From contig CAVPSB010000006.1 in the NCBI GenBank assembly GCA_963708025.1, positions 1-15,783 on the forward strand: 15,783 nucleotides of DNA, given 5' to 3'. Both the position numbers and the translations under genes were made by a program. Source of the stretch: an uncultured Candidatus Rokubacteria bacterium. GTDB taxonomy: Bacteria > Methylomirabilota > Methylomirabilia > Rokubacteriales > DASRDR01. The notes below the pieces were generated by a model. The model was not told where the DNA came from. It searched no databases and worked only from the letters and a program-made list of their open reading frames with translations. Shown in pieces: positions 1 to 15,783 of the stretch (its first letter is position 1; each line of letters starts with the position of its first letter).

Positions 1-18
1 AAGAGGGAGAGGAGAACC

Positions 19-1264: not shown

Positions 1265-1284
1265 CCCTGCCGAGAGGCCGGGTG

Positions 1285-1797
1285 ATGCTGGAGAGTATCG
1301 GGAGCGTCATGGCGTACCTGGTCGCCATGGGACTCGTCGCCGCCCCCTTCTGGGGACTCCATGCGCTCGGGCGCCGGCGGTGCGTGGCGGCGGCGAAGCG
1401 TGCCGCGGCCGGGATGGACGGGCGATACGAGAAGGGCGGGTACCTCTCGGGCGGGATGATCTACGGCCGGAAGGATGGGCGCGACGTGGTCGTCGACTTC
1501 TTCACCGGCAGCTCCAGGAAGAGGCCGCTGACGACGGCCATGACGACCCTGACGAAGCCGCGGAGCGGGCGGCTCCTGGTGCGCCGCACGCTTCTTGGCC
1601 GATGGGACGGGGTCGAGGCGCTCCCGCCGGCGGGCGCGGAGCTCGTGAGGCGGCTGGAGTCGTTCCGGCGCGCCCAGGTGGAGGCGTGGTCGAACATGGT
1701 CTCCGTCCGAGTGGCGGGCGTCCTCCACGACACCGCCCGCATCGTGGAGCTGGCGTCCATCACGGCCGCCCTGGCGTCGGAGCTGGAGCGCGCCTGA
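1285..1797 (+). CDS. Hypothetical protein, 170 aa, with one N-terminal hydrophobic segment
   Basis: 3' part of ORF 19..1797. GAGAGG precedes GTG1282/ATG1285; alternative start GTG1261 overlaps the upstream TGA. Hydrophobic stretch VMAYLVAMGLVAAPFWGL is followed by RRR. Confidence 0.65.
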   Translation: MLESIGSVMAYLVAMGLVAAPFWGLHALGRRRCVAAAKRAAAGMDGRYEKGGYLSGGMIYGRKDGRDVVVDFFTGSSRKRPLTTAMTTLTKPRSGRLLVRRTLLGRWDGVEALPPAGAELVRRLESFRRAQVEAWSNMVSVRVAGVLHDTARIVELASITAALASELERA

Positions 1798-1882
1798 CCG
1801 GCCGTCACCTTAACGCGAAGGGCGGTAGCGGCGGCGACGGTCAGGTCGGCAGTCAGGGAGATGGACCTCCGGGCGTCGCCGC

Positions 1883-2701
1883 CTACATGTACAGCCCGCC
1901 GTTCGGGCTGATCACCTGGCCGGTCAGATAGCCGCTGTCGTCGGACGCCAGATACAGCGCGGTGCCGGCGATCTCCTCCGGGGTGGCCGCCCGCCCGTCG
2001 AGCGCGAGGCGCAGCATCGCCTGGCGGCGGTGCTCCACGAGCGCGGCGGCCATCTCGGTGTCGACCGCGCCGGGCGCGATCACGTTGGCGACGATGCCGC
2101 ACGGGGCGACGTCCTGGGCCAGCGCCTTGGTGAAGCCGATCATCCCCGCCTTGGCAGCCGAGTAGTCAGGGTGCGTGGCCAGGCCGCGGAGCCCGGAGAC
2201 CGACGCCATGTTGATGATCCGTCCGGAGCGCTGCGGCTCCATGATGCGGACGGCTTCCCGGCAACAGTAGAAGGCGCTGTCCAGGTTGGCGGTGATCGTG
2301 TCGCGCCATTCCTCGTCGGTCAGGGCGGCCACCGCGCCGAGCGGCGAGAGCGCCCGCCCGTGCGCGAGCAGCTCGCCGTCGATCTGCCTGGTGCGCTCCA
2401 CGATGTGGGCCGGGCTCTTGCGGACGCTCCCGGCGTTGTTGACGAGCACGTCGAGCCGGCCGAGCGCCGCCAGCACCGCGGCGAAGAGCCGCCGCACCTC
2501 GTCGCTGCGCGAGACGTCGGCCGGGATCGCGATCGCCGTCCCGCCGGCGGCCGTGATCCGCGCGACCACGCGGTGGAGCGGCTCCGGCCGCCGGCCCGCG
2601 ACGACCACGCGAGCGCCTTCGGCGGCGAACCGGTGGGCGATCGCCTCGCCGATGCCGGTGCCACCGCCAGTGACGAGTGCCGCCCGTCCCGATAGCCTCA
2701 T
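1883..2701 (-). CDS. Short-chain dehydrogenase/reductase (classical, FabG-like), 272 aa
   Basis: GGGAGAGG RBS before ATG at 2701. Motifs TGGGTGIG, NNAG, NMAS, YSAAK, VIAPG and GYLTGQVISPNGG. AGRR after beta-2 suggests NADP(H) preference. Confidence 0.93.
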   Translation of the reverse strand: MRLSGRAALVTGGGTGIGEAIAHRFAAEGARVVVAGRRPEPLHRVVARITAAGGTAIAIPADVSRSDEVRRLFAAVLAALGRLDVLVNNAGSVRKSPAHIVERTRQIDGELLAHGRALSPLGAVAALTDEEWRDTITANLDSAFYCCREAVRIMEPQRSGRIINMASVSGLRGLATHPDYSAAKAGMIGFTKALAQDVAPCGIVANVIAPGAVDTEMAAALVEHRRQAMLRLALDGRAATPEEIAGTALYLASDDSGYLTGQVISPNGGLYM

Positions 2702-2835: not shown

Positions 2836-3456
2836 ATGGCGAGCACATCCCCGGGAACGCGGTCCGTGAAGGGCGGGATCCCGAAGGGCGGGATCCAGGA
2901 TGTTCAGCTCCTGATCGGCGAGCGGATCAAGCGGGCGCGGAAGAGCCGCGGACTGACGCTTCAGGACCTAGCCCGAAAGAGCGGGCTGACTCCCGGGTAC
3001 ATCTCGCAGATCGAGAACAGCAAGGCGCTGCCCTCGGTCGCGACGATCTTCAAGGTGGGCAACGTCCTCGACTGTCCGCTGACGTTCTTCTTCGATCGTG
3101 ACGGCGCCCCGGACCGCGTCGTCGTGCGCAAGCACGAGCGGAAGGTGCTGCCGCTGCCCGGGTCGCGAATCACCTGCGAGCTGCTCTCCCCCGACCTGGT
3201 GGGGAAGCGGCTCGACCCGAACATCATGCGGTTCGAGCGCGGCGGGAGCACCGGGAAGACACCCTACAGCCACAAGGAGGGCGAGGTCCTGATCCTGGTG
3301 CTGAAGGGGGAGTTCGAGCTGGTCGTGGATCGCGTGCGCTCGGTGTTGCTCGAGGGTGACAGCGCGCACTTCAACGCCGCCACGCCCCACACGATCGCCA
3401 ACCGTGCCGACGGCCCGGGTGAGATCGTCTGGGTGGCCACCCCGCCGACCTACTAG
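2836..3456 (+). CDS. XRE-family HTH plus cupin transcriptional regulator (PuuR/SutR-like), 206 aa
   Basis: GAGGAG RBS before ATG2836. HTH_3 region IGERIKRARKSRGLTLQDLARKSGLTPGYISQIENSKALPS; C-terminal cupin YSHKEGE...LKGEFEL...GDSAHFNAATPHTIAN. Confidence 0.93.
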   Translation: MASTSPGTRSVKGGIPKGGIQDVQLLIGERIKRARKSRGLTLQDLARKSGLTPGYISQIENSKALPSVATIFKVGNVLDCPLTFFFDRDGAPDRVVVRKHERKVLPLPGSRITCELLSPDLVGKRLDPNIMRFERGGSTGKTPYSHKEGEVLILVLKGEFELVVDRVRSVLLEGDSAHFNAATPHTIANRADGPGEIVWVATPPTY

Positions 3457-3464
3457 CCAGTCAC

Positions 3465-3489
3465 TCGGGGGGTCTCGGAAGACCCCCGA
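3465..3489 (+). repeat. REP-like GC-rich palindromic element, copy A
   Basis: TCGGGGGGTC-TCGGAA-GACCCCCGA hairpin just after the regulator stop codon; near-identical inverted copy at 10126-10153. Confidence 0.7.
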
Positions 3490-3571: not shown

Positions 3572-3600
3572 TTGACAACCATCCCGGCTGGTTTTAGTTT
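3572..3600 (+). promoter_or_regulatory. sigma70-type promoter for the long downstream operon
   Basis: Perfect TTGACA (3572-3577), 17-bp spacer, TAGTTT (3595-3600), 55 bp upstream of GTG3656, which has a GGAGG RBS. Confidence 0.75.
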
Positions 3601-3638
3601 GAGCAAACTCGCTCCCCGAAATATTTAGGGCTGGTAAA
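3593..3638. promoter_or_regulatory. Candidate operator boxes 2 and 3
   Basis: TTTAG-TTTGA-GCAAA (3593-3607) overlaps the -10, and TTTAG-GGCTG-GTAAA (3624-3638) starts 31 bp later. A perfect inverted repeat AGTTTG-AG-CAAACT also lies at 3596-3609. Confidence 0.5.
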
Positions 3639-3655
3639 AGCTGGAGGGCCCGGCC

Positions 3656-4945
3656 GTGTCCACTTCCGCGCGCGACGTGGCGCCCGATCGAGAGTCGCCG
3701 GCTGTCTCGGCCGATCCCAACGCCGAGGCGTTCGACCGGATCTGCGGCTCGGAGCCGGTGCTGGTCGACATCCGTGCCGCCGGGGAAGTGGTTCCGGGAA
3801 TGACCCGGGACACGATCCTCACCTCGGGCGCGCCGCTCCCGTGGGCGCAGTACACGGGGGGCCAGCGCCGGGCGATCCTGGGGGGCGCCCTGTTCGAAGG
3901 GCTGGCGGAAGACGCCGACCGGGCAGCCGCCCTCCTGGCCGACGGAGCGGTGCGGATCCGTCCGTGCCACGACCACGGCTGCGTCGGGTCGGTCGCCGGC
4001 ATCTACACGGCATCGATGCCGGTCTTCGTCGTCGAGAATCGCCGCGCCGGGAACCGCGCCTTCTGCAACCTGTTCGAGGGCGTCTCGCCCAAGCGGCTGA
4101 ACTACGGCGTCTACAACGAGGAGGTCCGCCAGAACCTGCTGGTCCTGCGGGACGTGATCGCCCCGACGCTCGGTGAGGCGGTGCGGGCCCTGGGCGGCAT
4201 CCCACTTCGCCCGATCATGCGGCGTGCCCTCCACATGGGCGACGAGCTGCACAGCCGGAACACGGCCGCCACGCTGCTCTTCACCCGTGAGCTGTTTCCG
4301 GCTCTGCTCGACCAGGCGTCCCGCCGGTCGGCCGAGGCCCGGCAGCTTCTCGACTTCCTGCGCGCCAGCGACTACTTCTTCCTGCGACTCTCCATGGCCG
4401 CGTCGAAGGCCACCGCCGACGCGGCCCACGGCGTGGCGGGCTCGAGCGTGGTGACCGCGATGACGCTCAGCTGTCGGGATTTCGCCATCCGGGTGAGCGG
4501 GCTCGGGGACGAGTGGTTCCGCGGACCCCTTCCGGACGTCGGCGCCATGAAGCTCTTCCCCGGCCACGGTCCCGGCGACGTCGAGTTCATGGGCGGGGAG
4601 AGCTGCATCGCGGAGACCGTGGGCCTCGGCGGCTTCGCCCAGGCGGCGGCCTTTCCGCTGCAGGAGTACCAGGGCGGGACGAGCGAGCGGATGGCGGAGT
4701 TGAACCGCGCGATGTACCGGATCACGGTCGGCGAGCACCCGGAGTTCAAGATCCCGTACCTCGGCTTCCGGGGGACGCCCACCGGCATCGACGTCTACCG
4801 CGTCGTGGCGACCGGGATCACGCCCGTGATCGACGCCGGCGTGGCCGGCAAGGACGGCGGTCAGATCGGCGCCGGGGTCCTGAACGCCCCGCTCGCCTGC
4901 TTCCAGCAGGCCGCCGAGGCACACCGCCGCCGCTACGGGAGCTGA
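3656..4945 (+). CDS. DUF1116-family protein (YlbE/AllG, YahG-like), 429 aa
   Basis: Motifs ILTSGAPLPW, ALFEGLA, PCHDHGCVGSVAG, ALHMGDELHSRN, ESCIAETVGLGG, GTPTGID and QIGAG correspond to conserved YlbE/YahG blocks, with several substitutions. Confidence 0.85.
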   Translation: MSTSARDVAPDRESPAVSADPNAEAFDRICGSEPVLVDIRAAGEVVPGMTRDTILTSGAPLPWAQYTGGQRRAILGGALFEGLAEDADRAAALLADGAVRIRPCHDHGCVGSVAGIYTASMPVFVVENRRAGNRAFCNLFEGVSPKRLNYGVYNEEVRQNLLVLRDVIAPTLGEAVRALGGIPLRPIMRRALHMGDELHSRNTAATLLFTRELFPALLDQASRRSAEARQLLDFLRASDYFFLRLSMAASKATADAAHGVAGSSVVTAMTLSCRDFAIRVSGLGDEWFRGPLPDVGAMKLFPGHGPGDVEFMGGESCIAETVGLGGFAQAAAFPLQEYQGGTSERMAELNRAMYRITVGEHPEFKIPYLGFRGTPTGIDVYRVVATGITPVIDAGVAGKDGGQIGAGVLNAPLACFQQAAEAHRRRYGS

Positions 4946-4957
4946 GCGGCGGAACCC

Positions 4958-5128
4958 ATGACATCCACGGCGGGGAACGGGGAGCCGGTGCTCATCGAGC
5001 GGCTCGCGGGGACCGACGTGCGAGCGCTGGCTGGTCGGGGAGGACCTGAGGAGGAAGACGCGGGCGGCCCTCGAGGAGGAGCCGCCGGACATCCGGCCGT
5101 AGGCACGGCAGGGAAGGGGGATCTGTGA
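4958..5128 (+). CDS. Possible small hypothetical protein (56 aa)
   Basis: ATG4958 to TGA5128 fills the intergenic gap, and the stop overlaps GTG5125 (GTGA). RBS is weak and no motif was recognised. Confidence 0.3.
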   Translation: MTSTAGNGEPVLIERLAGTDVRALAGRGGPEEEDAGGPRGGAAGHPAVGTAGKGDL

Positions 5129-6510
5129 CGACGCGCAGCGACAGGTCGGATCGAACCGAGAAGCTGGAAGCCCGGCGAGCCGAGCTCGAGAAGCAGGGTG
5201 TCCGGTACTGCATCGCGAGCTTCACCGACATCAACGGCGTGATGAAGGCCAAGTTCGTCCCGATCGAGCGGTTCGCCCACCTCATGGAGGGCTCCGAGCT
5301 GTACAACGTCTGTGCAATGGAGGGGCTCAACATCGGGCGGGACGCGAACGACTTCGAGTCCTGCACGATCCCGGACCTCGACTCGCTGGTGGTGCTGCCC
5401 TGGAAGCCCGACACCGCTTGGCTGGCCGCCGACATCCAGTACGAGGGCCAGCCCGACGTCCTGTGCGCTCGCCAGGTGCTCAAGCGGGTGGCGTCCCGCG
5501 CCCGTGAGATGGGGTTCGGGCTGAACTTCGGGATCGAGACTGAGCTCTACGTCCTGCGGGAGCGCCCCGACGGGACGTACGGTCCCTACCACCCCGAAGA
5601 CAAGATGCAGAACACGCCGGGGTACGACGTCCGGATGACGCTCGACTCGATGGATTGGCTGGACACCATGGTCCGGTACATGAACTCCCTCGGGTTCGGC
5701 GTGTACTCGTTCGACCACGAGGCGGGCCACGGGCAGTTCGAGTTCGACTTCGGGTTCGCCGACGTGGTGCGCATGGCCGACCGCTTCACCTTCTTCCGCT
5801 TGATGGCCCGCGAGGTCGCGCGGCTCAAGGGCGCGGTCGCCACGTTCATGCCGAAGCCCTACGCCAGCGACTACGGCAGCGGGGCCCACTTCAACATGAG
5901 CCTGGCCGACGCCACGACGGGGGCGAACCTGATGGGTGACCGGGCGGACAGCCGGGGCATCGGCATCTCCCAGCTGGCCTACCAGTTCATCGCCGGCGTG
6001 CTCGAGCATGCCGGGTCGATCACCGCGGTGGCGGCGCCGACCGTCAACTCGTACAAGCGCCTGGTGGCCCGCGGCTTCAACGCCGACATCACGTGGGCGC
6101 CGATCTACCGGGCCTACGGCGACAACAACAAGACGCTGATGGTCCGGATCCCACGCGCCCGGAACCGCATCGAGAACCGGGCGGCCGACAGCGCCAACAA
6201 CGTGTACCTGGCGGCGGCGCTGACCTTCGCGGCCGGGCTGGACGGGGTCCGCAAGAAGCTCGATCCGGGCCCGCCGCGCAACGAGAACATGTACCTGCTC
6301 TCCGACGCCGAGCTCGCCGAGCGCGGCGTCCGCTACCTCCCCCGCACGCTGCTCGAGGCGATCGAGGAGCTCGAAGCCGATCCGCTGGTTGACGAGGTGT
6401 TCTCGCCCGAGCTCAAGAAGGGGTTCATCCAGTACAAGCGGCGGGAGTGGGCCGAGTACCACAATACGGTCAGCTCCTGGGAGGTCGAGCGATACCTCAA
6501 GATGTTCTAG
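5125..6510 (+). CDS. Glutamine synthetase-like gamma-glutamyl-amide ligase (GlnT/GMAS-like), 461 aa
   Basis: Motifs SFTDINGVMKAKFVP, GIETE, DHEAGHGQFE, TFMPKP, GSGAHFNMSL, PTVNSYKRL, TWAP and RIENRAAD. It lacks FDGSS and has WAP in place of the GSI EAP flap. Confidence 0.92.
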   Translation: MTTRSDRSDRTEKLEARRAELEKQGVRYCIASFTDINGVMKAKFVPIERFAHLMEGSELYNVCAMEGLNIGRDANDFESCTIPDLDSLVVLPWKPDTAWLAADIQYEGQPDVLCARQVLKRVASRAREMGFGLNFGIETELYVLRERPDGTYGPYHPEDKMQNTPGYDVRMTLDSMDWLDTMVRYMNSLGFGVYSFDHEAGHGQFEFDFGFADVVRMADRFTFFRLMAREVARLKGAVATFMPKPYASDYGSGAHFNMSLADATTGANLMGDRADSRGIGISQLAYQFIAGVLEHAGSITAVAAPTVNSYKRLVARGFNADITWAPIYRAYGDNNKTLMVRIPRARNRIENRAADSANNVYLAAALTFAAGLDGVRKKLDPGPPRNENMYLLSDAELAERGVRYLPRTLLEAIEELEADPLVDEVFSPELKKGFIQYKRREWAEYHNTVSSWEVERYLKMF

Positions 6511-6517
6511 GCGTCCG

Positions 6518-7279
6518 GTGACGGTCCCCAGGGTCGGCGTGATCATCAGCTACGGCGAGGAGCGGCTGTTCCTCGAGCGGTACGGACAGATGCTGGAAGC
6601 GGCCCGGGCCCTGCCGGTCTACTTGCCGTACCCCGCTGGCAGCGCCACGCTCGACGGGTACCTCGACTGGGCGGACGGAATCGTGGCGACCGGCGGTGAA
6701 GATGTGTACCCCGAGGAGTACGGGGAGCGGCCCATTCCGGAGCTGGGCGCCATCGACCGCGCCCGGGACCGGTTCGAGCTCGCGCTGCTGAGACGCGCGG
6801 TGGAGCGCGACCGCCCCGTCCTGGCGATCTGTCGCGGGATCCAGGCGCTGAACGTGGCGATGGGCGGCACGCTGTACCAGGATCTCCCGGCCCAGGTGCC
6901 CGGCGCGCTGGCCCACGAGCCGACGCCGCTGTGGGAGGGCGACGGGCGGTTGGCCCCCTGCGGGCACGAGGTGGCGGTGGAGGGAGGGAGCGTGCTGGCC
7001 GCGACCCTGGGACGGAGGCGCCTGTCGGTCAACAGCTATCACCACCAGGCCGTCCGGGAGCCGGGGGCCGGGGTGCGAATCGTGGCCCGGGCCCCCGACG
7101 GGGTCGTCGAGGCCATCGAGCTGCCGGCGCGCCGGTTCGTGCTCGGGCTCCAGTGGCACCTCGAGCTGATGCTCGGGCAGGACGCGGGCGCCGAGGCGAT
7201 CCTCGGGCGCTTCGTCGAGGAGTGCGGGCGCGGGGCCAGGAGCGGCGCGCGGCCCGTGAGGGCGGGCGGACGGGCGTGA
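6518..7279 (+). CDS. Class I glutamine amidotransferase-like gamma-glutamyl hydrolase (peptidase C26, PuuD-like), 253 aa
   Basis: Motifs TGGEDV, RDRFE, AICRGIQ (nucleophile Cys), GGTLYQD, VNSYHHQ and QWHLE. GTG6518 follows the ligase stop. Confidence 0.92.
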   Translation: MTVPRVGVIISYGEERLFLERYGQMLEAARALPVYLPYPAGSATLDGYLDWADGIVATGGEDVYPEEYGERPIPELGAIDRARDRFELALLRRAVERDRPVLAICRGIQALNVAMGGTLYQDLPAQVPGALAHEPTPLWEGDGRLAPCGHEVAVEGGSVLAATLGRRRLSVNSYHHQAVREPGAGVRIVARAPDGVVEAIELPARRFVLGLQWHLELMLGQDAGAEAILGRFVEECGRGARSGARPVRAGGRA

Positions 7280-7758
7280 GCCCGGCGGCGCTGTTGACCG
7301 TCGCCCGGGACGTGCTCGGCTTGCGGCTGATCGCCACGCTCGCGACCCTGGCCGAGGACGGCTCGCTCTACGCGGTGCCGATGTGGTTCCGGTGGGACGG
7401 GACGTCGGTGCTCATCTGCACCTCGGCCCGGACCCGCAAGATCCGGAACCTGCGTCGGAACCCCCGGGCGACGGTCATGGTGGACCAGTGCCGGGGCGGC
7501 ATGGAGGTCCGCGGGGTCATGCTGGTGGGCTCGGCCGAGATCATCGAGGGCACGGAGGCGCGAGAGCTGAACCGGTCGATCCATCTCCGGTACGTGACGG
7601 CCCAGGGTCTGGCCCTCCCGGAGGTGCGCGGCTACCTCGACACCGACGACGTGACGGTTCGCGTGCGACCGGATCGCGTGACCACCTGGGACCTCACCGC
7701 GTCGCCGGCGAGCCGAGCGCTCGTGCGCGCCGGTCTCGCGCTGCCGCTCGACGGATGA
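7276..7758 (+). CDS. Pyridoxamine 5'-phosphate oxidase-like split-barrel flavin/deazaflavin-binding protein, 160 aa
   Basis: GTGA overlap with the upstream stop. Motifs ATLATLAEDGSLYAVPMWF, RKIRNLRRNPRATVMVD, RGVMLVGSAE and VRPDRVTTWD. Confidence 0.88.
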   Translation: MSPAALLTVARDVLGLRLIATLATLAEDGSLYAVPMWFRWDGTSVLICTSARTRKIRNLRRNPRATVMVDQCRGGMEVRGVMLVGSAEIIEGTEARELNRSIHLRYVTAQGLALPEVRGYLDTDDVTVRVRPDRVTTWDLTASPASRALVRAGLALPLDG

Positions 7759-8787
7759 GCGCGCGGGCGGCTGGCCGGAGGCCCGGAAGCGCGGAACGTC
7801 ACCGTCGCGTGCGGCTTCACGTTCAACAACTGCCGGAAGTACGACCAGGTCTTCTGGATCACGCCGGAGCGATACGCGGCGGCCACCCGGCGCCATCCCG
7901 CCCTCGCCCGCCGGGTCGATGCCACCATCGGCTGGGACCTCGAAGGCTTCGACGAGGCTCTGAAGACGGCCGACGTCCTGGTGGGGTGGGAGTTCGATCG
8001 CCGGAACCTGGCAGCCCGCGCGCCCCGGCTCCGATGGATCCACCTCACCGGCGCCGGCATCGAGCACGTCCTCCCGCTCACCTGGCTGCCCCCGGGCGCG
8101 GTGCTGACCAACAACAGCGGGGTCCACGCGCCGAAGGCGGGGGAGTTCGCCGCCACCGCCATCCTCATGCTGAACAACCGCATCCCGTTCCACGTGACGA
8201 ACCAGCGTCGGGCGTGGTGGGAGCAGCGGTTCAACGGAACCGTCACCGGCAAGACGCTGGTGATCGTCGGGGTCGGGGCGATGGGCGGCGCCGCGGCGCG
8301 ACGCGCCAAGGCGCTCGGGATGCGTGTGCTGGGAGTGCGGCGCAGCGGGCGGTCGCACCCGAGCGTCGATCGGATGTTCGGCCCCGAGGAGCTGGACCGG
8401 CTGCTTCCGCGGGCGGACTTCGTCCTCGTCACCGCTCCGCTGACGTCGCAGACGCGCGGCCTGGTGGGAGGGAAGCAGCTCGACCTGATGAAGGCGGAGG
8501 CCGGGTTGATCAACATGGGCCGGGCCGGGGTCGTGGACTACGCTGCCCTCGCCGACAAGCTCGGCCGGGGGGAGATCGCCGGCGCCGTCCTCGACGTCTT
8601 CGACCCCGAGCCGCTGCCGGCGGACTCGCCCCTGTGGGGCACCCCGAACCTGATCATGACGCCCCACGTGTCCTCGGACGCCCCCAACTACGCGGACCGG
8701 ACCCTGGACCTGTGCTTCCGGAACCTGCAGCGGTACCTGGCCGGACAGCCGCTGCACAACGTGGTGGACTCGACGCGCGAATACTGA
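7755..8787 (+). CDS. D-isomer-specific 2-hydroxyacid dehydrogenase, ~343 aa; apparent frameshift between 7758 and ~7825
   Basis: Motifs LRWIHLTGAG, IVGVGAMG, INMGR, LDVFDPEPLP and TPHVS. The catalytic frame is open from 7759 but has no ATG/GTG/TTG until 7981, while ATG7755 (ATGA-coupled to the upstream stop) is in another frame. Confidence 0.85.
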
Positions 8788-8819
8788 TGCCGCGCCGGGC
8801 CGCCGGAAGGAGAGACGAG

Positions 8820-9995
8820 ATGAGAAGGGCACGCAGCCTCGCGTACCTCGCGCTCATGGCGATCGTGGTCTGCCCGCCGGCCGGGTGGGCGGCCGACCCG
8901 GGCGTCAAGGACTCGGAGATCGTCGTCGGCCAGTGGGCCGCGATGACCGGCCCGGTGGCCCACCTCGGCACGTCGACGCGCGACGCCTTCCAGATCACGA
9001 TCAACGAGGTGAACGCCGCCGGCGGCGTGCACGGGCGGAAGATCCGGGTGATCGCGTATGACGACGCCGGCTCGCCGCAGGAAGCCCTGGCGGCCGTCCG
9101 CCGGCTGATCCATCAGGACCAGGTCTTCGCCCTGGTGATCGGCTCCACCAGCGGCGCCACGCTGCCCGTGATCCCGCTCATCACCCAGGCGAAGGTCCCC
9201 TTCATCTCTGGCACGTCCTCCAACGTGCGCTTGCTGCAGCCACACAGCCCGTACATCTTCCGCCCGTACCCGAACGACACCTGGCAGGGCTACCGGCTGA
9301 TGGACTACATCGTGGAGAAGGGGGGCAGCAAGCGGCCGGCGATCCTGTACGTGAGCGACGACTACGGCAAGGGTGGCTACGAGCTGGTCGGCAAGCGGCT
9401 GGAGGAGAAGCACAAGCTGAAGCTGGTGGCGGCGGAGCAGTACAACAAGGGAGACCAGGATTTCAGCGCGCAGCTCTTGCGGATCAAGCAGGCGAATCCG
9501 GACAGCGTGCAGATCTGGGCTTTCGCGCCGGACGCGGCGATCATCGTCCGCCAGGCCAAGGAGCTCGGGATCACGGCGCCGCTCTACGGCTCGGCATCGA
9601 CGGCGACCCCCCTCTTCCCGAAGGGCGCCGGCCCGGTCGGCGTCGGCTTCATGGCGAACTACCCGTTGCCCTACCTGCCCGAGTCCACGACCGTGCCGGC
9701 CGTGGTGAAGTACCGCGAGGCGCTGCAGAAGGTCTACCCGTCCGGGATGCCGGCCGGCCGACCCTCGCTATACGATTTCCTGGGCGTGGGCGCGGCGAAG
9801 GTCCTGATCGAGGGCCTGCAGCGAGCGGGTCGCGACGTGACGCGCGACAAGCTGATCGCGGCGCTGGAAACGCTGAAGGACTTCGACCCCGGGCTGAGCC
9901 TGCCGGTGACGTTTACGAAAGACAGCCACGAGGGGAGCACCGAGGTGCGGATGCTCCGGGTCAACGAGAAGGTGGAGTGGGAGGCGGTCCCCTAG
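8820..9995 (+). CDS. ABC transporter substrate-binding protein, LivK/Peripla_BP_6 type, 391 aa
   Basis: AAGGAG RBS before ATG8820. Signal peptide ending near GWA-ADP; motifs NAAGGVHGRKI, YDDAGSP, DDYGKGG and DFSAQLLRIKQANPD. Confidence 0.92.
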   Translation: MRRARSLAYLALMAIVVCPPAGWAADPGVKDSEIVVGQWAAMTGPVAHLGTSTRDAFQITINEVNAAGGVHGRKIRVIAYDDAGSPQEALAAVRRLIHQDQVFALVIGSTSGATLPVIPLITQAKVPFISGTSSNVRLLQPHSPYIFRPYPNDTWQGYRLMDYIVEKGGSKRPAILYVSDDYGKGGYELVGKRLEEKHKLKLVAAEQYNKGDQDFSAQLLRIKQANPDSVQIWAFAPDAAIIVRQAKELGITAPLYGSASTATPLFPKGAGPVGVGFMANYPLPYLPESTTVPAVVKYREALQKVYPSGMPAGRPSLYDFLGVGAAKVLIEGLQRAGRDVTRDKLIAALETLKDFDPGLSLPVTFTKDSHEGSTEVRMLRVNEKVEWEAVP

Positions 9996-9997
9996 CA

Positions 9998-10049
9998 GCC
10001 GGACGTGCGGGACGTGAATCCCGGCTAGGCGCATGTCCGGCGTAGCCGG
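9998..10049 (+). other. Intergenic stem-loop(s) immediately after the SBP gene
   Basis: GCCGGACGTGCG (9998-10009) pairs with CGCATGTCCGGC (10030-10041) with one G-U. An alternative pairing is CCGGCTA (10021-10027) with TAGCCGG (10043-10049). No U-tract. Confidence 0.5.
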
Positions 10050-10125
10050 CGCTCGAATCCACCCGTTCCGTGCGAGCGCCGGCTTCGCCGGTGGCCCACC
10101 CACCCAGCCCGAAAGGGGGGGAGAA

Positions 10126-10153
10126 TCGGGGAGGTCGTCCGAGACCCCCCCGA
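10126..10153 (-). repeat. REP-like GC-rich palindromic element, copy B
   Basis: Minus strand reads TCGGGGGGGTC-TCGGAC-GACCTCCCCGA, matching copy A in stem and loop. Confidence 0.7.
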
Positions 10154-10163
10154 AGATCTAGCG

Positions 10164-11035
10164 GTGCTCTTCTTTTCACAGGTCATCGTCAGCGGGCTGA
10201 CCTCGGGAGCCTGTACGCCTTGACCGCCCTCGGCTTCGCCATCATCTTCCGGGCGACGGGGGTGGTCAACTTCGCCCAGGGCGAGATGATGATGATCGGC
10301 GCCATGTTCGCCCTCGTCCTGTTCCGCGACTACCGACTCGGCTACGTCGCGTCCTTCCTCCTGGCGCTGGGGGCGGCCTGGATCTTCGGCGCGCTCGTGG
10401 AGCGGGTGGCGTATCGCCCGCTCCTCGACGCGCCGGTCTTCACGGTGATCCTCTCCACGGTCGCCGTCGGCCAGATCCTGCGGAGCGGCGTGCGGATCGT
10501 CCGGGGTGACGAGCTGTCGCTCTTCCCCCCGATCCTGAGCGGGCAGCCGTTCACGGTGCTGGGGATCAGCCTGACGCTGCTGAACATCGGCATCGTGGTG
10601 ATCTCGTTGCTCTTCCTCGCCGGGTTCATCGCCTTCTTCCGGTGGACGCGGATCGGGTGGGCCATGCGGGCGACCGCCCAGAACAAGGAGGCGGCGGCGC
10701 TGGTCGGCGTGAGCGTCCCGATGGTGTTCTCGGTGTCGTGGGGCATCAGCGCCGCCCTGGCCGCCGCGGCCGGGATCCTGGTGGCGCCGCTCATCACCAT
10801 CACGCCGGACATGGGCGTCATCGGTATCAAGGGGTTCATCGCGGCCATCATGGGCGGCTACAACACGCTCTCCGGCGCCGTCGTGGGGGGGTTCCTCCTG
10901 GGGGTGCTCGAGAACTTGGCCGGGGTGTACATCTCCAGCACGTTCAAGGACGTGGTCACGTTCGGCGCGTTGATCGCGATGGTGATCGTGCGGCCCGCCG
11001 GCCTCCTGGGAACGCCGGCGACCCGGCGCGTATGA
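10164..11035 (+). CDS. livH: Branched-chain amino acid-type ABC permease (LivH-like), ~290 aa; apparent frameshift at ~10201
   Basis: GTG10164 gives MLFFSQVIVSGLT; adding one C joins it to LGSLYALTALGFAIIFRATGVVNFAQG, the typical LivH N-terminus. TRIGWAMRATAQN and RPAGLLG are also present. Confidence 0.88.
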
Positions 11036-12021
11036 CGCGACGGTCGCTGGTCCGGGCGTCCGGATGGAGTGCGGCCATCGCGGCCTTCGCCGGGTTGCCG
11101 CTGGTCCTGCCGGTCTATCACCAGTTCGTGCTGAGCCTGACGCTGGTGAACGCGATCGCCGCCATGGGCGTCAACCTGAGCATGGGGTATGCCGGGCAGG
11201 TCTCGATCGGGCACGCCGGGTTCGTCGCCATCGGCGCCTACACGGCGGCCATCCTCATGACCAAGGTGGCGGCGCCGTACTGGCTGACGCTGCCGCTGGG
11301 GGGCGCGCTCGCCGCGCTCTTCGGCTTCCTGATCGGCCTCCCCGCGCTCCGGCTGAGCCATCTCTACATCGGCATGGTGACGTTCGGCTTCGGGCAGGCG
11401 ATCGGCTTCATCGCCCTGAACTGGGTCGCCCTGACCAACGGGCCGAACGGCCTCGCGGTGCCACCGATCACGCTCGGCTCGTTCATGTTCTCACCGGACA
11501 CCTTCTACTACGTGATCGCGGCGGCGTTTCTGGTGCTGCTGTGGGTGGCAAGGAACCTGGTCGGGTCGCGGGTGGGGCGCTGCTTCCTGGCGATCCGGGA
11601 GAGCGAGACGGCGGCCGAGGCCATGGGCGTGAACCTCGTCCGGTACAAGACGATGGCCTTCGCCGTGGGCGCCGCCTACGCTGGCCTGGCCGGCGCCCTG
11701 TACGCCGGGCTCTCGCAGTTCGTCAACCCGGACGCGTTCGTGTTCCTGGTCTCGGTGCTGTACCTGACGATGAACGTGGTGGGCGGCATGGGCACGCTGG
11801 CCGGGCCGCTCGTCGGTGCGGTCATCTTCACGCTGATGCCGGAGTTGCTGCGCACCTTCGCGGAGTACAAGGAGCTGCTCTCGGGCGCGCTGCTCCTGGG
11901 CTTCCTGGTGTTCTTCCCCCGGGGGGTGGTCGGGATCGTGGAGCCGGCGGTGGCCCGTCTGTGGCGGTGGTCCGGGAAGCCGGCGCCGCTGACGGCGTCG
12001 TCGGTCGGCGATGAAGCCTGA
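11032..12021 (+). CDS. livM: Branched-chain amino acid-type ABC permease (LivM-like), 329 aa
   Basis: ATGA overlap with the upstream stop. Motifs GYAGQVSIGHAGF, LTNGPNG, AIRESETAAEAMGVN and VVGGMGTLAGP. Confidence 0.92.
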   Translation: MTRRSLVRASGWSAAIAAFAGLPLVLPVYHQFVLSLTLVNAIAAMGVNLSMGYAGQVSIGHAGFVAIGAYTAAILMTKVAAPYWLTLPLGGALAALFGFLIGLPALRLSHLYIGMVTFGFGQAIGFIALNWVALTNGPNGLAVPPITLGSFMFSPDTFYYVIAAAFLVLLWVARNLVGSRVGRCFLAIRESETAAEAMGVNLVRYKTMAFAVGAAYAGLAGALYAGLSQFVNPDAFVFLVSVLYLTMNVVGGMGTLAGPLVGAVIFTLMPELLRTFAEYKELLSGALLLGFLVFFPRGVVGIVEPAVARLWRWSGKPAPLTASSVGDEA

Positions 12022-12802
12022 GCCCGGGCTGCTGCGGGTGGAGGGCGTCTCGCTCCGGTTCGGAGGACTCCGGGCGCTGCAGGACGTGAGCCTGAGCGTG
12101 GCCCGCGACGAGATCGTCGGCTTGATCGGACCCAACGGCGCCGGGAAGACGAGCCTGTTCAACCTCATCACGCGGCTCTACACCCCGGATCAGGGCCGGC
12201 TGTGGTTCGACGGCCGGGATGCGCTGTCCTGGGCGCCCCACCAGGTGATCGGTCAGGGCATCGCCCGCACGTTCCAGAACCTGCTCCTGTTCAACGGGCT
12301 GAGCGTGATGGACAACGTGATGATCGGCGCCCACACACACATGCGGGCCGGTCTCCTGCACTGCGCCTTGCGGCTTCCGCTCAGCACGCGCGAGGATGGG
12401 TCGATGCGCGGCTGGTGCGCGGAGGTCCTGAAGGTCGTGGGCCTCGAGGGGGTCGCGGCCCACACGGCGCGGAACCTCCCCTTCGGGCACCAGCGGCTGC
12501 TCGAGCTGGCCCGGGCGCTGGCCAGCCGTCCACGGCTGCTGCTGCTCGACGAGCCGGGGGCCGGGCTGAATGCCGAAGAGCTCGACGGGCTGACGGCCGT
12601 GATCCACCGGGTCCGGCGCGACCTGGGGCTCAGCATCCTGCTGATCGGGCACACCATGCGGCTCGTGCTGGGAATCTCGGAGCGAGTCGTCGTGCTCGAC
12701 CACGGGGTGAAGATCGCGGAGGGCACCCCGGCCGAGATCCGCTCGGACCCCGTCGTCATCGGCGCCTACCTGGGAAAGGCCGGAGCCGGTGCTGCGCCTT
12801 GA
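12011..12802 (+). CDS. livG: ABC ATP-binding protein (LivG-like), 263 aa
   Basis: Motifs FGGLRAL, Walker A GPNGAGKT, IARTFQN, LPFGHQR, Walker B LLLLDEP and VIGAYLG. Confidence 0.93.
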   Translation: MKPEPGLLRVEGVSLRFGGLRALQDVSLSVARDEIVGLIGPNGAGKTSLFNLITRLYTPDQGRLWFDGRDALSWAPHQVIGQGIARTFQNLLLFNGLSVMDNVMIGAHTHMRAGLLHCALRLPLSTREDGSMRGWCAEVLKVVGLEGVAAHTARNLPFGHQRLLELARALASRPRLLLLDEPGAGLNAEELDGLTAVIHRVRRDLGLSILLIGHTMRLVLGISERVVVLDHGVKIAEGTPAEIRSDPVVIGAYLGKAGAGAAP

Positions 12803-13496
12803 CGACGTCCGGGCCTCCTACGGGAGCATCCGGGCGCTCCAGGGGATCACGGTCGAGGTGCCGGCCGGCGCCGTCGTCACCATCCTGGGTGCGAACGGCG
12901 CCGGCAAGACCACGACCCTCCGGACCGTCACGGGCCTCCTGCGCCCCGATCGTGGGACCATCACGTACGAGGGGCGGCGGATCGACGGCCTCGCGCCGGA
13001 TCGGATCGTGCGGCTGGGGATCTCCATGGTGCCCGAGCGTCGCGAGCTGTTCTCGGAGATGACGGTCGCCGAGAATCTCAAGATGGGAGCGTACTCGCGC
13101 CGGGACCGGGGCGCGATCGCCGCCGACCTCGAGGGAGTCTTCGTCCTCTTCGGCGACCTGCGCGAGCGGCGGCGCCAGGTGGCGGCCTCTCTGAGCGGAG
13201 GGCAGCAGCAGATGCTGGCCATCGGGCGGGCCTTGATGGCCCGGCCCCGGCTGCTACTGCTCGACGAGCCGACCCTGGGGCTGGCCCCGCTGCTGGTGCA
13301 GCGGATCTTCGAGGCGATCGGCGAGATCAGCCGATCGGGCGTGACGATCCTGCTGGTGGAGCAGAATGCCCACCGGGCGCTCCCGATGTCGCGATTCGCC
13401 TACGTGCTGGAGACCGGGCGGGTGGTGGTGAGCGGCGCCAGCAACGACCTCATCTCCGATCCCCGGGTGAAGCAATCGTACCTGGGAGAGATCTGA
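12789..13496 (+). CDS. livF: ABC ATP-binding protein (LivF-like), 235 aa
   Basis: Motifs GANGAGKT, VPERRELF, LSGGQQQM, LLLLDEPTLGLAP, LLVEQN and SYLG. Confidence 0.94.
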   Translation: MLRLDDVRASYGSIRALQGITVEVPAGAVVTILGANGAGKTTTLRTVTGLLRPDRGTITYEGRRIDGLAPDRIVRLGISMVPERRELFSEMTVAENLKMGAYSRRDRGAIAADLEGVFVLFGDLRERRRQVAASLSGGQQQMLAIGRALMARPRLLLLDEPTLGLAPLLVQRIFEAIGEISRSGVTILLVEQNAHRALPMSRFAYVLETGRVVVSGASNDLISDPRVKQSYLGEI

Positions 13497-13525
13497 GAGC
13501 GTGTGAAGGAATAGGTCCTCCGACT

Positions 13526-13577
13526 CCCCCCTCCCCCCGGTGGGTGGGGGAGGGGGGTTGGGGGGGTGGGCGGGGGG
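13526..13577 (+). repeat. C-tract/G-tract palindrome plus G-run cluster in the livF-ubiD intergenic region
   Basis: CCCCCCTCCCCC (13526-13537) pairs with GGGGGAGGGGGG (13546-13557). Six G-runs of 3-7 nt lie between 13542 and 13577. Confidence 0.6.
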
Positions 13578-13605
13578 TCCCGAACTGAGCCGACCGGGGG
13601 AGCCG

Positions 13606-14949
13606 ATGCAAGACCTGCGGTCCTTTCTGGAGGTGTTGAGCAAGCGGGGCGAGCTGCGGGAGGTCACGCGGAGGCTGGATCCCCGCCTGATGGCCGGGCT
13701 CCTGGGACCCAGCGAGGCGGCGCTCCTCTTCAGCGACCTCGCCGGGTACCCGGGCGTACGGGCGGTCGGACAGGTGATGGCCACCCGCGACCGTTGCGCG
13801 TTCGCCATGGGCGCCGACCCCGCGCGGGCCCCGTGGCGCTTCATGGAGGCCCTGAAGCGGCCGGTCGAGCCCGAGATCGTGGCCGACGGCCCGGTGCTCG
13901 AGCACCGCTACAGCGGCCCCGGCCAGGTGGACCTCACCATGCTGCCGATCCCACTCCTGCACCAGGAAGACGGGGGCCCGTACATGACGGCCGGCCTGGT
14001 GGTGTCGGAGGACCCGGCCGAGGGGCGGAACGTCGGGTGCTACCGGCTCATGTACCGGACGCCTACCACCACCGGGATCGACCTGGTCTCCAACAGCGAC
14101 CTCTCGACCCGCTACCGGCGCGCGCTCGCCCGCGGCGAATCCCTGCCGATCGCGATCGCCATCGGGACGCACCCGTGCGATGCCATGGCGGCGGCGTACG
14201 CCGCCTCGGTGGGCACCGACGAGTTCACGATCGCCGGGGCCCTGAAGGGGGAGCCGGTCCCGCTGGTGCGGCTCCCGCTGACCGGGTTCGCGGTCCCGGC
14301 CTACGCCGAGGTCGCGATGGAGGCCGAGCTGCTCCCGACCGGCTGGACGGAGCCGGAAGGCCCCTTCGGCGAGTTCCAGCGGCTGCAGGGCGGCGTCCAT
14401 CTCAACCCCATCGTCCGCTTCAACGCCATCTACCACCGCAACCATCCGATCTTCCACGTGGTCACCCACCCGTGGGAGGGTGGGTGGGCGATGAATTCCA
14501 TCCCGATGGAGGTGAGCTGCCTGGAGGCGCTCAGCGCCGCCCGCGTCCAGACGGTGGCGATCAACATGCCGAAGGGCGGCGTCTGCTTCGACGTGGTGGC
14601 GGCGATCCGCAAGAAGCCGGGCCAGGGGAAGCTGGCCGTGATGGCGTTGCTCTCCACGACCATCATCAAGCACGCCATCGTGGTCAACGAGGACATCGAC
14701 ATCTTCGATCCGGTGGACGTCCAGTGGGCGGTGGCGACGCGGGTCCAGGCCGATCGCGACATCATCGTGGTCCCGGACTGCCGGGGCAAGCCGCTCGATC
14801 CGACCGCCACGTTCGCCGGCACGCCGCAGGCCCTGGCCAGCCGGTGGGGCATCGACGCCACCATCCCCGACGGGCGCGATCCGGAGGCGTTCCGGAAGTT
14901 CGCGTACACCTTCCCCGACACCCGGCTGGATGACCACGTCGAGCCATGA
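13606..14949 (+). CDS. UbiD-family prFMN-dependent (de)carboxylase, 447 aa
   Basis: GGGGGAG RBS before ATG13606. Motifs DLRSFLEVL, VDLTMLPIP, DGGPYMTAG, NVGCYR (catalytic Arg), EGPFGEF (Glu pair), VVNEDIDIFD, WAVATRVQADRD and WGIDAT. Confidence 0.94.
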   Translation: MQDLRSFLEVLSKRGELREVTRRLDPRLMAGLLGPSEAALLFSDLAGYPGVRAVGQVMATRDRCAFAMGADPARAPWRFMEALKRPVEPEIVADGPVLEHRYSGPGQVDLTMLPIPLLHQEDGGPYMTAGLVVSEDPAEGRNVGCYRLMYRTPTTTGIDLVSNSDLSTRYRRALARGESLPIAIAIGTHPCDAMAAAYAASVGTDEFTIAGALKGEPVPLVRLPLTGFAVPAYAEVAMEAELLPTGWTEPEGPFGEFQRLQGGVHLNPIVRFNAIYHRNHPIFHVVTHPWEGGWAMNSIPMEVSCLEALSAARVQTVAINMPKGGVCFDVVAAIRKKPGQGKLAVMALLSTTIIKHAIVVNEDIDIFDPVDVQWAVATRVQADRDIIVVPDCRGKPLDPTATFAGTPQALASRWGIDATIPDGRDPEAFRKFAYTFPDTRLDDHVEP

Positions 14950-14961
14950 GCGGAGGCGATG

Positions 14962-15168
14962 ATGAGCGAGACGCGTAGACTGCAGCTGGCCCGACGGATC
15001 CAGGCGCTGCTGGCCGAACGCCCCGTCTCGGTGTACGAACTGCTCCGGGCGCTCCCGGACGAGGACTACCGGACCATCTTGCAGGCCTGGGGAGACGTGC
15101 GCACCCAGGTGGCTCTGGTCCCGGATGTGCACGGACGCTACAGCGTGCGGCCGGCAGCCGGGTCCTAG
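14962..15168 (+). CDS. Small hypothetical protein, 68 aa (69 aa from ATG14959)
   Basis: GGAGG RBS at 14952-14956. Fits the gap between ubiD and the next gene; amphipathic helical pattern. Confidence 0.7.
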   Translation: MSETRRLQLARRIQALLAERPVSVYELLRALPDEDYRTILQAWGDVRTQVALVPDVHGRYSVRPAAGS

Positions 15169-15181
15169 GAAGGAGGACGAC

Positions 15182-15783
15182 ATGCCCATCTGGGACGACG
15201 TGATCGGATCGAGCGATCGGACGAGCTTCGCCAAGGGGTACTCGGCGGAGGAGTACATCGGCTTCGGCGAGCGACCGGCGGTGCTGGTCGTGGACATGTG
15301 TCGCGCGTTCGTCGAGGACGCGTATCCGACGGGGAACAGCCGCCACGGCCGGCCGACGGCGGCGGCCATCAGCCGGCTGCTGGCGGCGGCGCGCGAGGCC
15401 GCCGTCCCCGTGCTCTTCACCACCTACTCGGCGAGCGACTTCGCGTACGGGTGGGCCCGGTGGAAGGGGAAGGCGCTGAGCGACCCGCTCATGCACAGCG
15501 AGACCGCCTTCGAGATCGTCCCCGAGCTGCGACCGCGACCGGGGGAGCGGGTGATCGTCAAGACCATGCCGAGTGGGTTCTTCGGCACGCCGCTGGCGAG
15601 CCTGCTCACGTTCCTGGGGGTGGACACCTGCATCGTCACCGGCATGGTGACGAGCGGCTGCGTTCGGGCCACGGTGGTCGATGCCTTCTCGCACAACTAC
15701 CGGGTGGTGGTCCCCGAGGAGTGCGTGGCCGACCGCGGCGAGCTGTCCCACAAGGTGAACCTCTTCGACATCCACATGAAATA
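15182..15783 (+). CDS. Isochorismatase-family cysteine hydrolase (N-carbamoylsarcosine amidase/maleamate amidohydrolase-like), 3' end cut by window
   Basis: Translated by hand because it is absent from the ORF track. AGGAGG RBS; MPIWDDVI...GFGERPAVLVVDM...VIVKTMPSGFFGTPL...TGMVTSGCVRATVVDA...VADR...NLFDIHMK, with the Asp-Lys-Cys triad. Confidence 0.92.
   Translation, partial: MPIWDDVIGSSDRTSFAKGYSAEEYIGFGERPAVLVVDMCRAFVEDAYPTGNSRHGRPTAAAISRLLAAAREAAVPVLFTTYSASDFAYGWARWKGKALSDPLMHSETAFEIVPELRPRPGERVIVKTMPSGFFGTPLASLLTFLGVDTCIVTGMVTSGCVRATVVDAFSHNYRVVVPEECVADRGELSHKVNLFDIHMK

Follow-up and report, generated by a model that had tools for sequence, protein, structure and literature searches.

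A gamma-glutamylation/DUF1116 gene set, a HAAT-type importer and a UbiD unit in one soil Rokubacteria gene cluster: a possible mosaic of reusable modules

Amines are processed in several bacteria by gamma-glutamylation and later deglutamylation, as in the Puu system for putrescine (PuuA/PuuD/PuuR), the Ipu system for isopropylamine (IpuC/IpuF) and the Atd/Tdn system for aniline (AtdA1/AtdA2). In the DUF1116 family, the studied member is described as a subunit of the three-protein oxamate carbamoyltransferase AllFGH of Escherichia coli (PMC11326118), and among UbiD-family decarboxylases the structure 6H6V is that of PtHmfF (PMC8988006). Here we analyse a stretch of 15,783 bases, called the window below, that places genes related to all of these in a single row: contig CAVPSB010000006.1 (C6) of an uncultured Candidatus Rokubacteria bacterium (GCA_963708025.1). 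Our reading, which we hold with about as much doubt as confidence, is that this cluster is a mosaic particular to its lineage, put together from three reusable modules, and not one conserved 13-gene pathway; in the organism, the modules may serve one family of nitrogen-rich substrates.

The window is the entire contig, from an 8.17-Mb, 49-contig soil genome bin of 70% G+C with 8.18% contamination. A codon-usage caller, trained on the window itself, was used together with Pfam and NCBIfam to map the genes. Thirteen genes run on the plus strand from 3656 to the contig end, 3′ of a gene for a PuuR-like regulator; because the window is the whole contig, the last gene is truncated and the data stop short of the cluster's true 3′ end. 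The regulator, the cluster and the sites ahead of it are:

2836-3456, plus strand: PuuR-like regulator (HTH_3 8.1e-16, Cupin_2 7.1e-13)
3572-3600, plus strand: promoter-like site, read directly (TTGACA 3572-3577, 17-nt spacer, TAGTTT 3595-3600)
3596-3609, plus strand: 14-nt palindrome AGTTTGAGCAAACT, a candidate operator, overlapping the TAGTTT of the promoter-like site
3656-4945, plus strand: DUF1116/AllG-family protein (PF06545, 245 bits, 7.3e-73)
5125-6510, plus strand: GmaS/GlnT-like ligase of the glutamine synthetase family (Gln-synt_C 1.6e-93)
6518-7279, plus strand: PuuD-like Peptidase_C26 (C26) gamma-glutamyl amide hydrolase (PF07722 2.8e-58)
7276-7758, plus strand: PPOX-class oxidoreductase, F420- or FMN-dependent (PNPOx_N 9.2e-16)
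7755/7981-8787, plus strand: D-2-hydroxyacid dehydrogenase (2HADH; NF041369, 222 bits)
8787-9995, plus strand: HAAT-type substrate-binding protein (SBP; Peripla_BP_6 2.5e-68)
10164/10220-11035, plus strand: LivH-type permease (BPD_transp_2 4.5e-37)
11032-12021, plus strand: LivM-type permease (BPD_transp_2 5.6e-44)
12011-12802, plus strand: LivG-type ATPase (ABC_tran and BCA_ABC_TP_C; LivG model 257.5 bits)
12789-13496, plus strand: LivF-type ATPase (ABC_tran 2.9e-32)
13606-14949, plus strand: UbiD-family decarboxylase, dependent on prenylated flavin mononucleotide (prFMN), with UbiD_N, UbiD and UbiD_C domains
14959-15168, plus strand: small open reading frame (ORF) of 69 amino acids, matching no Pfam or NCBIfam family
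15182-15783, plus strand, cut by the contig end: isochorismatase-like Cys-hydrolase (PF00857 1.1e-36)

What recurs around relatives of the DUF1116 gene is its pairing with the ligase. We compared the best 80 of 245 related loci, obtained with alignment A1 (32 relatives) from one-genome-per-species contigs with flanks of up to 10 kb, and scored them by tblastn with the window proteins (E<=1e-10, more than half of the query aligned); several of these loci are short, so the counts from them are lower bounds. At 61 of the 80 loci a ligase gene is present within 10 kb of DUF1116, and 58 of these ligases are at least 43% identical to that of the window; the two genes are immediate neighbours on the same strand in 27 cases, 13 of them with a gap of at most 20 nt. 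The pair spans the Actinomycetota, Pseudomonadota, Chloroflexota, Dormibacterota, Gemmatimonadota and Methylomirabilota. The other genes of the window are found far less often beside it: PPOX in 13 loci, 2HADH in 10, a short-chain dehydrogenase/reductase (SDR) in 9, the C26 hydrolase in two, the Cys-hydrolase and the SBP in one each, and UbiD, the PuuR-like regulator and the small ORF in none. In 3 of 81 loci, the window among them, a PuuD-like hydrolase accompanies the pair, here together with the PuuR-like regulator, which argues that the ligase would make a hydrolysable gamma-glutamyl amide rather than glutamine.

Genes that recur near the pair code for an amino-acid permease and two family-less proteins (29-32 loci), arginase-family proteins (19), AsnC regulators (17), formamidase (12) and the Rieske oxygenase alpha subunit (family 13, in 9 of 80, locus L042 included); Rieske alpha genes also occur at the related loci on contig C12 of the same genome and in genome G003. 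About 30 of the 80 loci (within L036-L115; for example L085:5000-11300 and L038:5291-12500) carry the pair together with the two Pfam-less proteins, of some 327 and 258 amino acids, and the permease. The larger of these companions gives faint metallophosphoesterase matches. With the arginase-family, formamidase or AsnC genes that often accompany it, this set has the look of a conserved operon not yet described. GltB-like subunits of N-methylglutamate synthase had been considered for neighbour families 2, 3 and 4, which Pfam instead identified as the amino-acid permease and the two family-less proteins.

The DUF1116 protein belongs to a branch of its family that lacks the usual partners. In a FastTree phylogeny of 95 DUF1116 proteins, the 75 FdrA-less members (window included) and the 20 FdrA-linked members separated at 100/100 local support. 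With three FdrA-like queries and one carbamate kinase, tblastn found neither an FdrA-like (AllF) gene nor carbamate kinase in the window, at the C12 locus or in any of the 80 related loci; in the same genome such matches lie at C26 and C14 only, where canonical FdrA-DUF1116-carbamate kinase sets are encoded. AllH (DUF2877) had no match among the window ORFs in general Pfam scans, a search that did not extend to the related loci. The other clade, represented by 20 loci from 60 relatives and the genome itself, is 43-49% identical to the window protein; 15 of these loci carry an FdrA-like CoA-ligase gene, and they often hold carbamate kinase, molybdenum hydroxylases and barbiturase-type or amidohydrolase genes as well. 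The FdrA-less clade is present in 4 of 251 genomes of the phylum, one of which (G245) has DUF1116 followed by an overlapping ligase gene. Among 8,000 scored metagenome candidates, 6,963 are relatives of the DUF1116 protein at E<=1e-60, the best at 93% identity, and the nearest named relative of the gene is in a Methylomirabilota metagenome-assembled genome. The protein matches 3clq in the PDB (4e-85). Its predicted structure, with a predicted local distance difference test score (pLDDT) of 82.3, matched only 3clq in fold searches, the next match (VIA Z-score 4.1) covering part of the model; since only 3clq matched, the fold gives no functional lead. A likeness to succinyl-CoA-synthetase domains that had been considered found no support in these searches. 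The literature on DUF1116 that we found deals with E. coli ylbE/allG or allFGH and none of it with glutamine synthetase; we found no paper on the ligase/DUF1116 pair.

The ligase itself is close to the GmaS group. It scored 508.5 bits with TIGR03105 (cut-off 469.6), aligned to positions 3-344 of the 344 of Gln-synt_C, and matched best, over its full length, the glutamate-methylamine ligase 9qur (3.8e-100), followed by Rhodovulum GmaS 7cql (5.3e-84); identity to GmaS, estimated by eye from the alignment, is about 45%. The C26 hydrolase matched 3fij (5.8e-38) and then E. coli PuuD 6vtv (4.7e-30), and the catalytic Cys-His-Glu is kept, with the cysteine of a CRG motif and an H-x-E motif aligned with 3fij. 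None of the Puu equivalog scores was reached (PuuA (GGputSyn) 232.7 of 650 bits, PuuD 114.8 of 266, PuuR 71.6 of 211). The PPOX protein stayed just below TIGR03618 (76.4 against 79.05 bits), and cofD is encoded elsewhere in the genome. A predicted complex of the ligase with DUF1116 (alignments A2 and A1) scored 0.00 and counts neither way.

At the other end of the cluster, UbiD exceeded the TIGR00148 cut-off (272.9 against 244.85 bits) and matched 6h6v best in the PDB (9.8e-66), with the HmfF group closest; the VdcC model gave 261.9 of 650 bits. The small ORF matched no NCBIfam family, hence no VdcD-type model. Its protein is modelled with high confidence (pLDDT 90.7) as a winged-helix fold, the best PDB matches having TMq 0.6-0.75 at E>=0.03, and its neighbours in the atlas are hypothetical proteins of 61-67 residues. 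Two UbiX genes above cut-off lie elsewhere in the genome (C25, C18) and none in the window. The Cys-hydrolase matched best the N-carbamoylsarcosine amidohydrolase 26st, with 26st, 1nba, 4l07 and 3uao spanning 5.6e-33 to 4.2e-23; we take 4l07 and 3uao to be maleamate amidases. Aligned with 26st and 4l07, the hydrolase keeps the Asp, Lys and Cys positions, of which the Cys position is the one changed to Ala in 4l08. No pathway combining UbiD with an isochorismatase or amidase was found in the literature.

In relatives, the UbiD unit is met apart from the FdrA-less DUF1116 clade. UbiD homologues (E<=1e-40) occur in 47 of 61 relatives' genomes, the best only 43-48% identical, and none lies on the same contig as a DUF1116 match; the tallies of DUF1116 and UbiD among relatives include the unpublished genomes G038 and G055, on which no individual statement here depends, and a first scan of the genome contigs with the UbiD protein alone gave no match. 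The eight relatives with the closest UbiD (43-48%) hold only FdrA-type DUF1116 matches of at most 52% identity, or none (G056). A profile search placed the small ORF directly after UbiD in 9 of the 11 loci with downstream sequence, and of the other two, L129 has a possible, weak fusion and in L118 the small ORF was not found. In L129 (G033:C10:18473-20068), UbiD carries a C-terminal extension of about 110 amino acids with a weak match to the small protein (31 bits, E 1e-6). Apparent fusions in L123, L126 and L127 were put down to the openness of alternative frames in GC-rich DNA. Genome G028 has an operon of the hydrolase (58%) in first place, an ABC ATPase, a permease, an NMT1-type SBP, UbiD (46%) and the small ORF; G056 has an NMT1-type transporter as in G028, UbiD and the small ORF; and other loci join UbiD and the small ORF to a TRAP transporter, to UbiX and PPOX or to a molybdenum hydroxylase. 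A locus in G023 (L128, G023:C134:5138-10094) has GntR, UbiD, the small ORF, a second UbiD, UbiX and a PPOX-class protein in a row, and the PPOX gene there may bear on flavin handling. For close relatives of UbiD the metagenome scan gave short contigs only, and the junction of UbiD (81%) and small ORF (63%) is kept on such a contig. In its own genome the small protein occurs only three times, on C6, on C12 and as a remnant on C28.

Between these two groups lies a complete importer with an SBP, two permeases and two ATPases, LivH being intact only with one base restored near 10207. The SBP matched 4q6w (7.9e-32); a search of 250 further genomes from the phylum, limited to 7 scored candidates in each, gave no orthologue of it at E<=1e-90. 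The adjacency of LivF (77%) and UbiD (77%) is kept on a metagenome contig (L116).

The cluster is real and probably co-expressed. By a simple reckoning, 13 genes would share one orientation by chance about once in 4000 cases, and all genes show coding-type codon usage. The junctions are GTGA for C26/PPOX, TGATG for 2HADH/SBP and ATGA for LivH/LivM; LivM and LivG overlap by 11 nt, LivG and LivF by 14 nt, and the small ORF is flanked by gaps of 9 and 13 nt with GGAGG-type ribosome sites. Larger gaps separate the DUF1116 gene from the ligase (179 nt), the SBP from LivH (168-224 nt) and LivF from UbiD (109 nt). Stem-loops are predicted at 3466-3488 after PuuR (-19 kcal/mol), at 10120-10152 after the SBP (-33.6) and at 13526-13557 after LivF (-41.8); these G/C-run structures lack a U-tract and do not clearly surpass shuffled sequences (z -0.9 to -1.9), and we draw no conclusion from them. 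The promoter-like site at 3572-3600 was absent from the list returned by a consensus promoter scan. As regards layout and families, the first-pass annotation of this DNA held up well: it had described a promoter and, after it, a row of 13 genes in one direction, several of them overlapping and a complete importer among them, which the gene calls and junctions bear out, the promoter as a predicted TTGACA-N17-TAGTTT at that very place; its family assignments agree throughout with Pfam and NCBIfam; and the pair of glutamine synthetase-like ligase and C26 (GAT-like) hydrolase that it had pointed out is there, under a PuuR-like regulator. It had also allowed for one possible small ORF; the small ORF after UbiD is conserved and real, and the one at 4958-5107 has non-coding codon usage.

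Two genes of the cluster are interrupted in the assembly. In 2HADH, the first 74 homologous codons have no in-frame canonical start; one base is absent at 7823 in near-identical contigs (96-98%) of the public soil runs X2 and X3, and dropping it joins 2HADH to the ATG at 7755, ATGA-coupled and overlapping the PPOX stop. The N-terminus of LivH is split over two frames at a G run near 10207 (against the LivH of L042); after a one-base correction there it reads the conserved N-terminus, the alternative being an internal start at 10220. Public soil-run contigs bridge several gene junctions at 96-98% identity, with X2 and X4 bridging that of 2HADH and SBP. The same assembly has further single-base frame breaks, in the C12 UbiD gene (G000:C12:351624-352962, two frames) and in the C14 DUF1116/AllG gene, and for this reason we infer that the 2HADH and LivH frameshifts are assembly errors rather than gene decay. 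The ORF at 4958-5107, in the gap between the DUF1116 and ligase genes, has a codon-usage score of -0.05 per codon, the real genes lying at 0.27-0.50. One base is also missing at 4937 in contigs of three runs; without it, the DUF1116 C-terminus would gain a few residues and the gene would end in an ATGA with the start of that ORF.

In the mosaic reading, the first module would extend from 3656 to 8787 under the PuuR-like regulator. Its GmaS-like ligase would gamma-glutamylate a small amine with ATP and glutamate, the FdrA-less DUF1116 protein would act directly before or after this step, on the nitrogen compound or on the glutamyl adduct, PPOX and 2HADH would modify the adduct or the carbon skeleton, and the PuuD-like hydrolase would take the glutamate off again, a logic of protecting, modifying and deprotecting as in Puu, Ipu and Atd. 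The second module, the HAAT ABC importer (8787-13496), would feed one or both of the others. In the third, from 13606 to the contig end, the Cys-hydrolase may remove an amide or N-carbamoyl group and the HmfF-like prFMN decarboxylase with its small winged-helix partner may decarboxylate a (hetero)aromatic acid, with prFMN supplied by a UbiX encoded elsewhere. A bolder idea, which we think unlikely and which takes the carbamoyl transfer of AllG as its analogy, is that FdrA-less DUF1116 proteins are the missing catalytic partners of GmaS-like ligases in an ATP-driven route that moves amide or ureido nitrogen into a gamma-glutamyl intermediate, coupled here to a prFMN decarboxylase and a Cys-amidase so as to mineralise an N-heteroaromatic carboxamide or carbamoyl acid.

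Several observations weigh against a mosaic. The 2HADH stop overlaps the SBP start, so that modules are physically joined, and this overlap and the LivF-UbiD adjacency recur in near relatives. The 80 loci cover 57-71% DUF1116 identity, and the metagenome relatives at 73-93% are not among them. The role given to DUF1116 is a guess, with a modelled fold that matches only DUF1116 itself. On C12, moreover, a second FdrA-less DUF1116 gene (74% identical) heads an operon of an NMT1-type ABC transporter, UbiD (45%) and the small ORF, a juxtaposition whose chance we put roughly at 1.5 in 10,000 (assuming five UbiD copies, each covering ±10 kb of 8.2 Mb, and two independent events). Paralogues of the ligase (53%) and of 2HADH (51%) lie 14-17 kb upstream of it, as do an AsnC regulator gene and the Rieske alpha gene. 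The FdrA-less DUF1116 gene and the UbiD module are thus joined only in this genome, and there twice, on C6 and C12; with different types of transporter and a low UbiD identity, simple duplication is unlikely, and the repeat therefore genuinely speaks for the two being linked in function in the lineage. The C12 DUF1116 gene holds the operon position held by the Cys-hydrolase in G028, which suggests, and no more, that DUF1116 also acts on an amide or ureido group.

These points favour one integrated pathway, in which an imported nitrogen-containing (hetero)aromatic carboxamide or N-carbamoyl acid would be deamidated by the Cys-hydrolase and decarboxylated by UbiD. The ligase would then gamma-glutamylate the resulting (hetero)aryl amine, as happens when aniline is degraded; DUF1116, PPOX and 2HADH would process it and C26 would release it. 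The co-directional genes with their overlaps and single promoter-like site, an importer coupled to the first module at its 5′ end and adjoining UbiD at its 3′ end (the latter kept in L116), the double juxtaposition, the shared operon position on C12 and in G028, and the Rieske alpha genes beside the DUF1116 clade (9 of 80 loci, C12 and G003), which fit an aryl-amine route, all agree with such a pathway. We nevertheless regard it as somewhat unlikely: UbiD is found at none of the 80 DUF1116 loci, the hydrolase at one and C26 at two, the UbiD module of eight relatives lives without the FdrA-less clade, the window holds no oxygenase, and three larger gaps hold stable stem-loops at which transcription could be divided. 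The first-pass annotation had taken all these genes to process one nitrogen-containing acid by a route matching no described pathway. We likewise found no characterised pathway with the whole gene set, and its DUF1116 protein does stand alone, with no FdrA/AllF-like gene in the window or at the related loci; the single route itself fared less well, since the full combination is not conserved in other genomes and the unit of UbiD, small ORF, transporter and sometimes hydrolase stands by itself in relatives that lack the clade. Quite unlikely, in our view, is a first module that is a nitrogen-scavenging unit for methylamine or small alkylamines with a true GmaS, the rest being unrelated neighbouring cargo. 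The ligase would suit it, with 9qur and 7cql as its best solved relatives and TIGR03105 above cut-off, as would the creatinase-like M24, arginase-family, formamidase, Rieske and formaldehyde-activating (GFA) genes at related loci, which fit release of methylated amines; but identity to GmaS is only moderate, the window has no N-methylglutamate synthase or dehydrogenase families, a C26 hydrolase would undo the product and DUF1116 would be left without a role. We think it very unlikely that the cluster is non-functional as a unit, being either an island in decay or a chimera of the assembly, even with two frameshifted genes, the contamination of the bin, a contig of only 15.8 kb and a broken remnant of the small ORF and hydrolase 5′ end on C28: two independent soil runs restore the 2HADH frame and bridge junctions, the frame breaks on C12 and C14 suggest single-base assembly errors, and codon usage is of the coding type in all genes.

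Upstream of the regulator, the window holds three further genes:

377-1264: M24 peptidase, creatinase/prolidase-like (called by Pfam, NCBIfam and the codon-usage caller)
1261-1797: 178-amino-acid protein of no assigned family
1883-2701, minus strand: SDR-family oxidoreductase (Pfam adh_short 3.3e-57), convergent with the M24/178-amino-acid pair upstream

The 5′ part of the M24 gene (window 1-410) is out of frame with the remainder, and one-base differences from public contigs occur in this region at 158, 220, 223 and 359; the copy on C28 is a full protein of 455 amino acids with a Creatinase_N domain. Contig C28 (G000:C28:36192-44233) copies window positions 4-1820 (the M24 and 178-amino-acid genes) at 91-96%, the similarity ending at 1820 so that SDR is the first differing gene, and then a 254-bp patch (14970-15223, 91%) with the small ORF and the first hydrolase codons. 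Between these flanks it has an HlyD/ABC-2 efflux set of 5.9 kb, against 13.15 kb from SDR to UbiD here, and the broken small-ORF remnant, fused to the first hydrolase codons, is followed there by a Rieske oxygenase alpha gene. This exchange of cargo marks the region as variable and mosaic; the difference could be a recombination scar, or the bin could hold two strains.

The interest of the cluster lies chiefly in the unexplained ligase/DUF1116 pair, which is widespread and without a described function. To this pair the window adds a PuuD-like hydrolase and a PuuR-like regulator beside it, the UbiD/winged-helix unit and the double juxtaposition of DUF1116 and UbiD; the HmfF-like UbiD with its conserved winged-helix partner would be a second unrecognised unit. 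If both units do act on one substrate, they would form a new route of soil organic-nitrogen turnover. The pair with its hydrolase and regulator is a set compact enough to express and assay.

Compared with described systems, the DUF1116 protein shares with AllFGH the domain PF06545 and the fold of 3clq, whereas AllF (FdrA), AllH and the carbamate kinase AllK are lacking beside it and it falls in a separate clade; since these defining partners were tested and not found, the window system is not AllFGH. With Puu, Ipu and Atd the cluster has in common a ligase of the glutamine synthetase family, a Peptidase_C26 hydrolase with its Cys, His and Glu, and redox enzymes, and with Puu also the HTH_3 and cupin architecture of PuuR. 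It differs from them in that the window has no PuuB/PuuC-type oxidase, aldehyde dehydrogenase, P450 or Rieske oxygenase, in that no PuuA, PuuD or PuuR equivalog cut-off is reached, and in a ligase of the GmaS/GlnT type with DUF1116, not known from those systems, as its conserved partner. For an Atd-type system in particular, no Rieske gene lies in the window, which ends inside its last gene, and Rieske alpha genes do lie beside relatives of the DUF1116 gene. GmaS of the N-methylglutamate pathway is similar over the full length, with TIGR03105 above cut-off; unlike it, this ligase type pairs with DUF1116 (61 of 80 loci), and genes for N-methylglutamate synthase or dehydrogenase are lacking in the window, the part of the genome that was scanned for them. 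The Cys-hydrolase is far below the cut-offs of RutB and BiuH (54.9 of 378 and 53.7 of 370 bits) and resembles N-carbamoylsarcosine amidohydrolase in its family domain and Asp-Lys-Cys triad. UbiD, finally, is unlike HmfF in having no UbiX/HmfG gene adjoining it and unlike VdcCD in a small partner with a predicted winged helix and in a VdcC score below cut-off; it is like both HmfF and VdcCD (6h6v; 7ae4) in its three UbiD domains and a TIGR00148 score above cut-off, and the small protein is encoded directly 3′ of it, as VdcD is in VdcCD.

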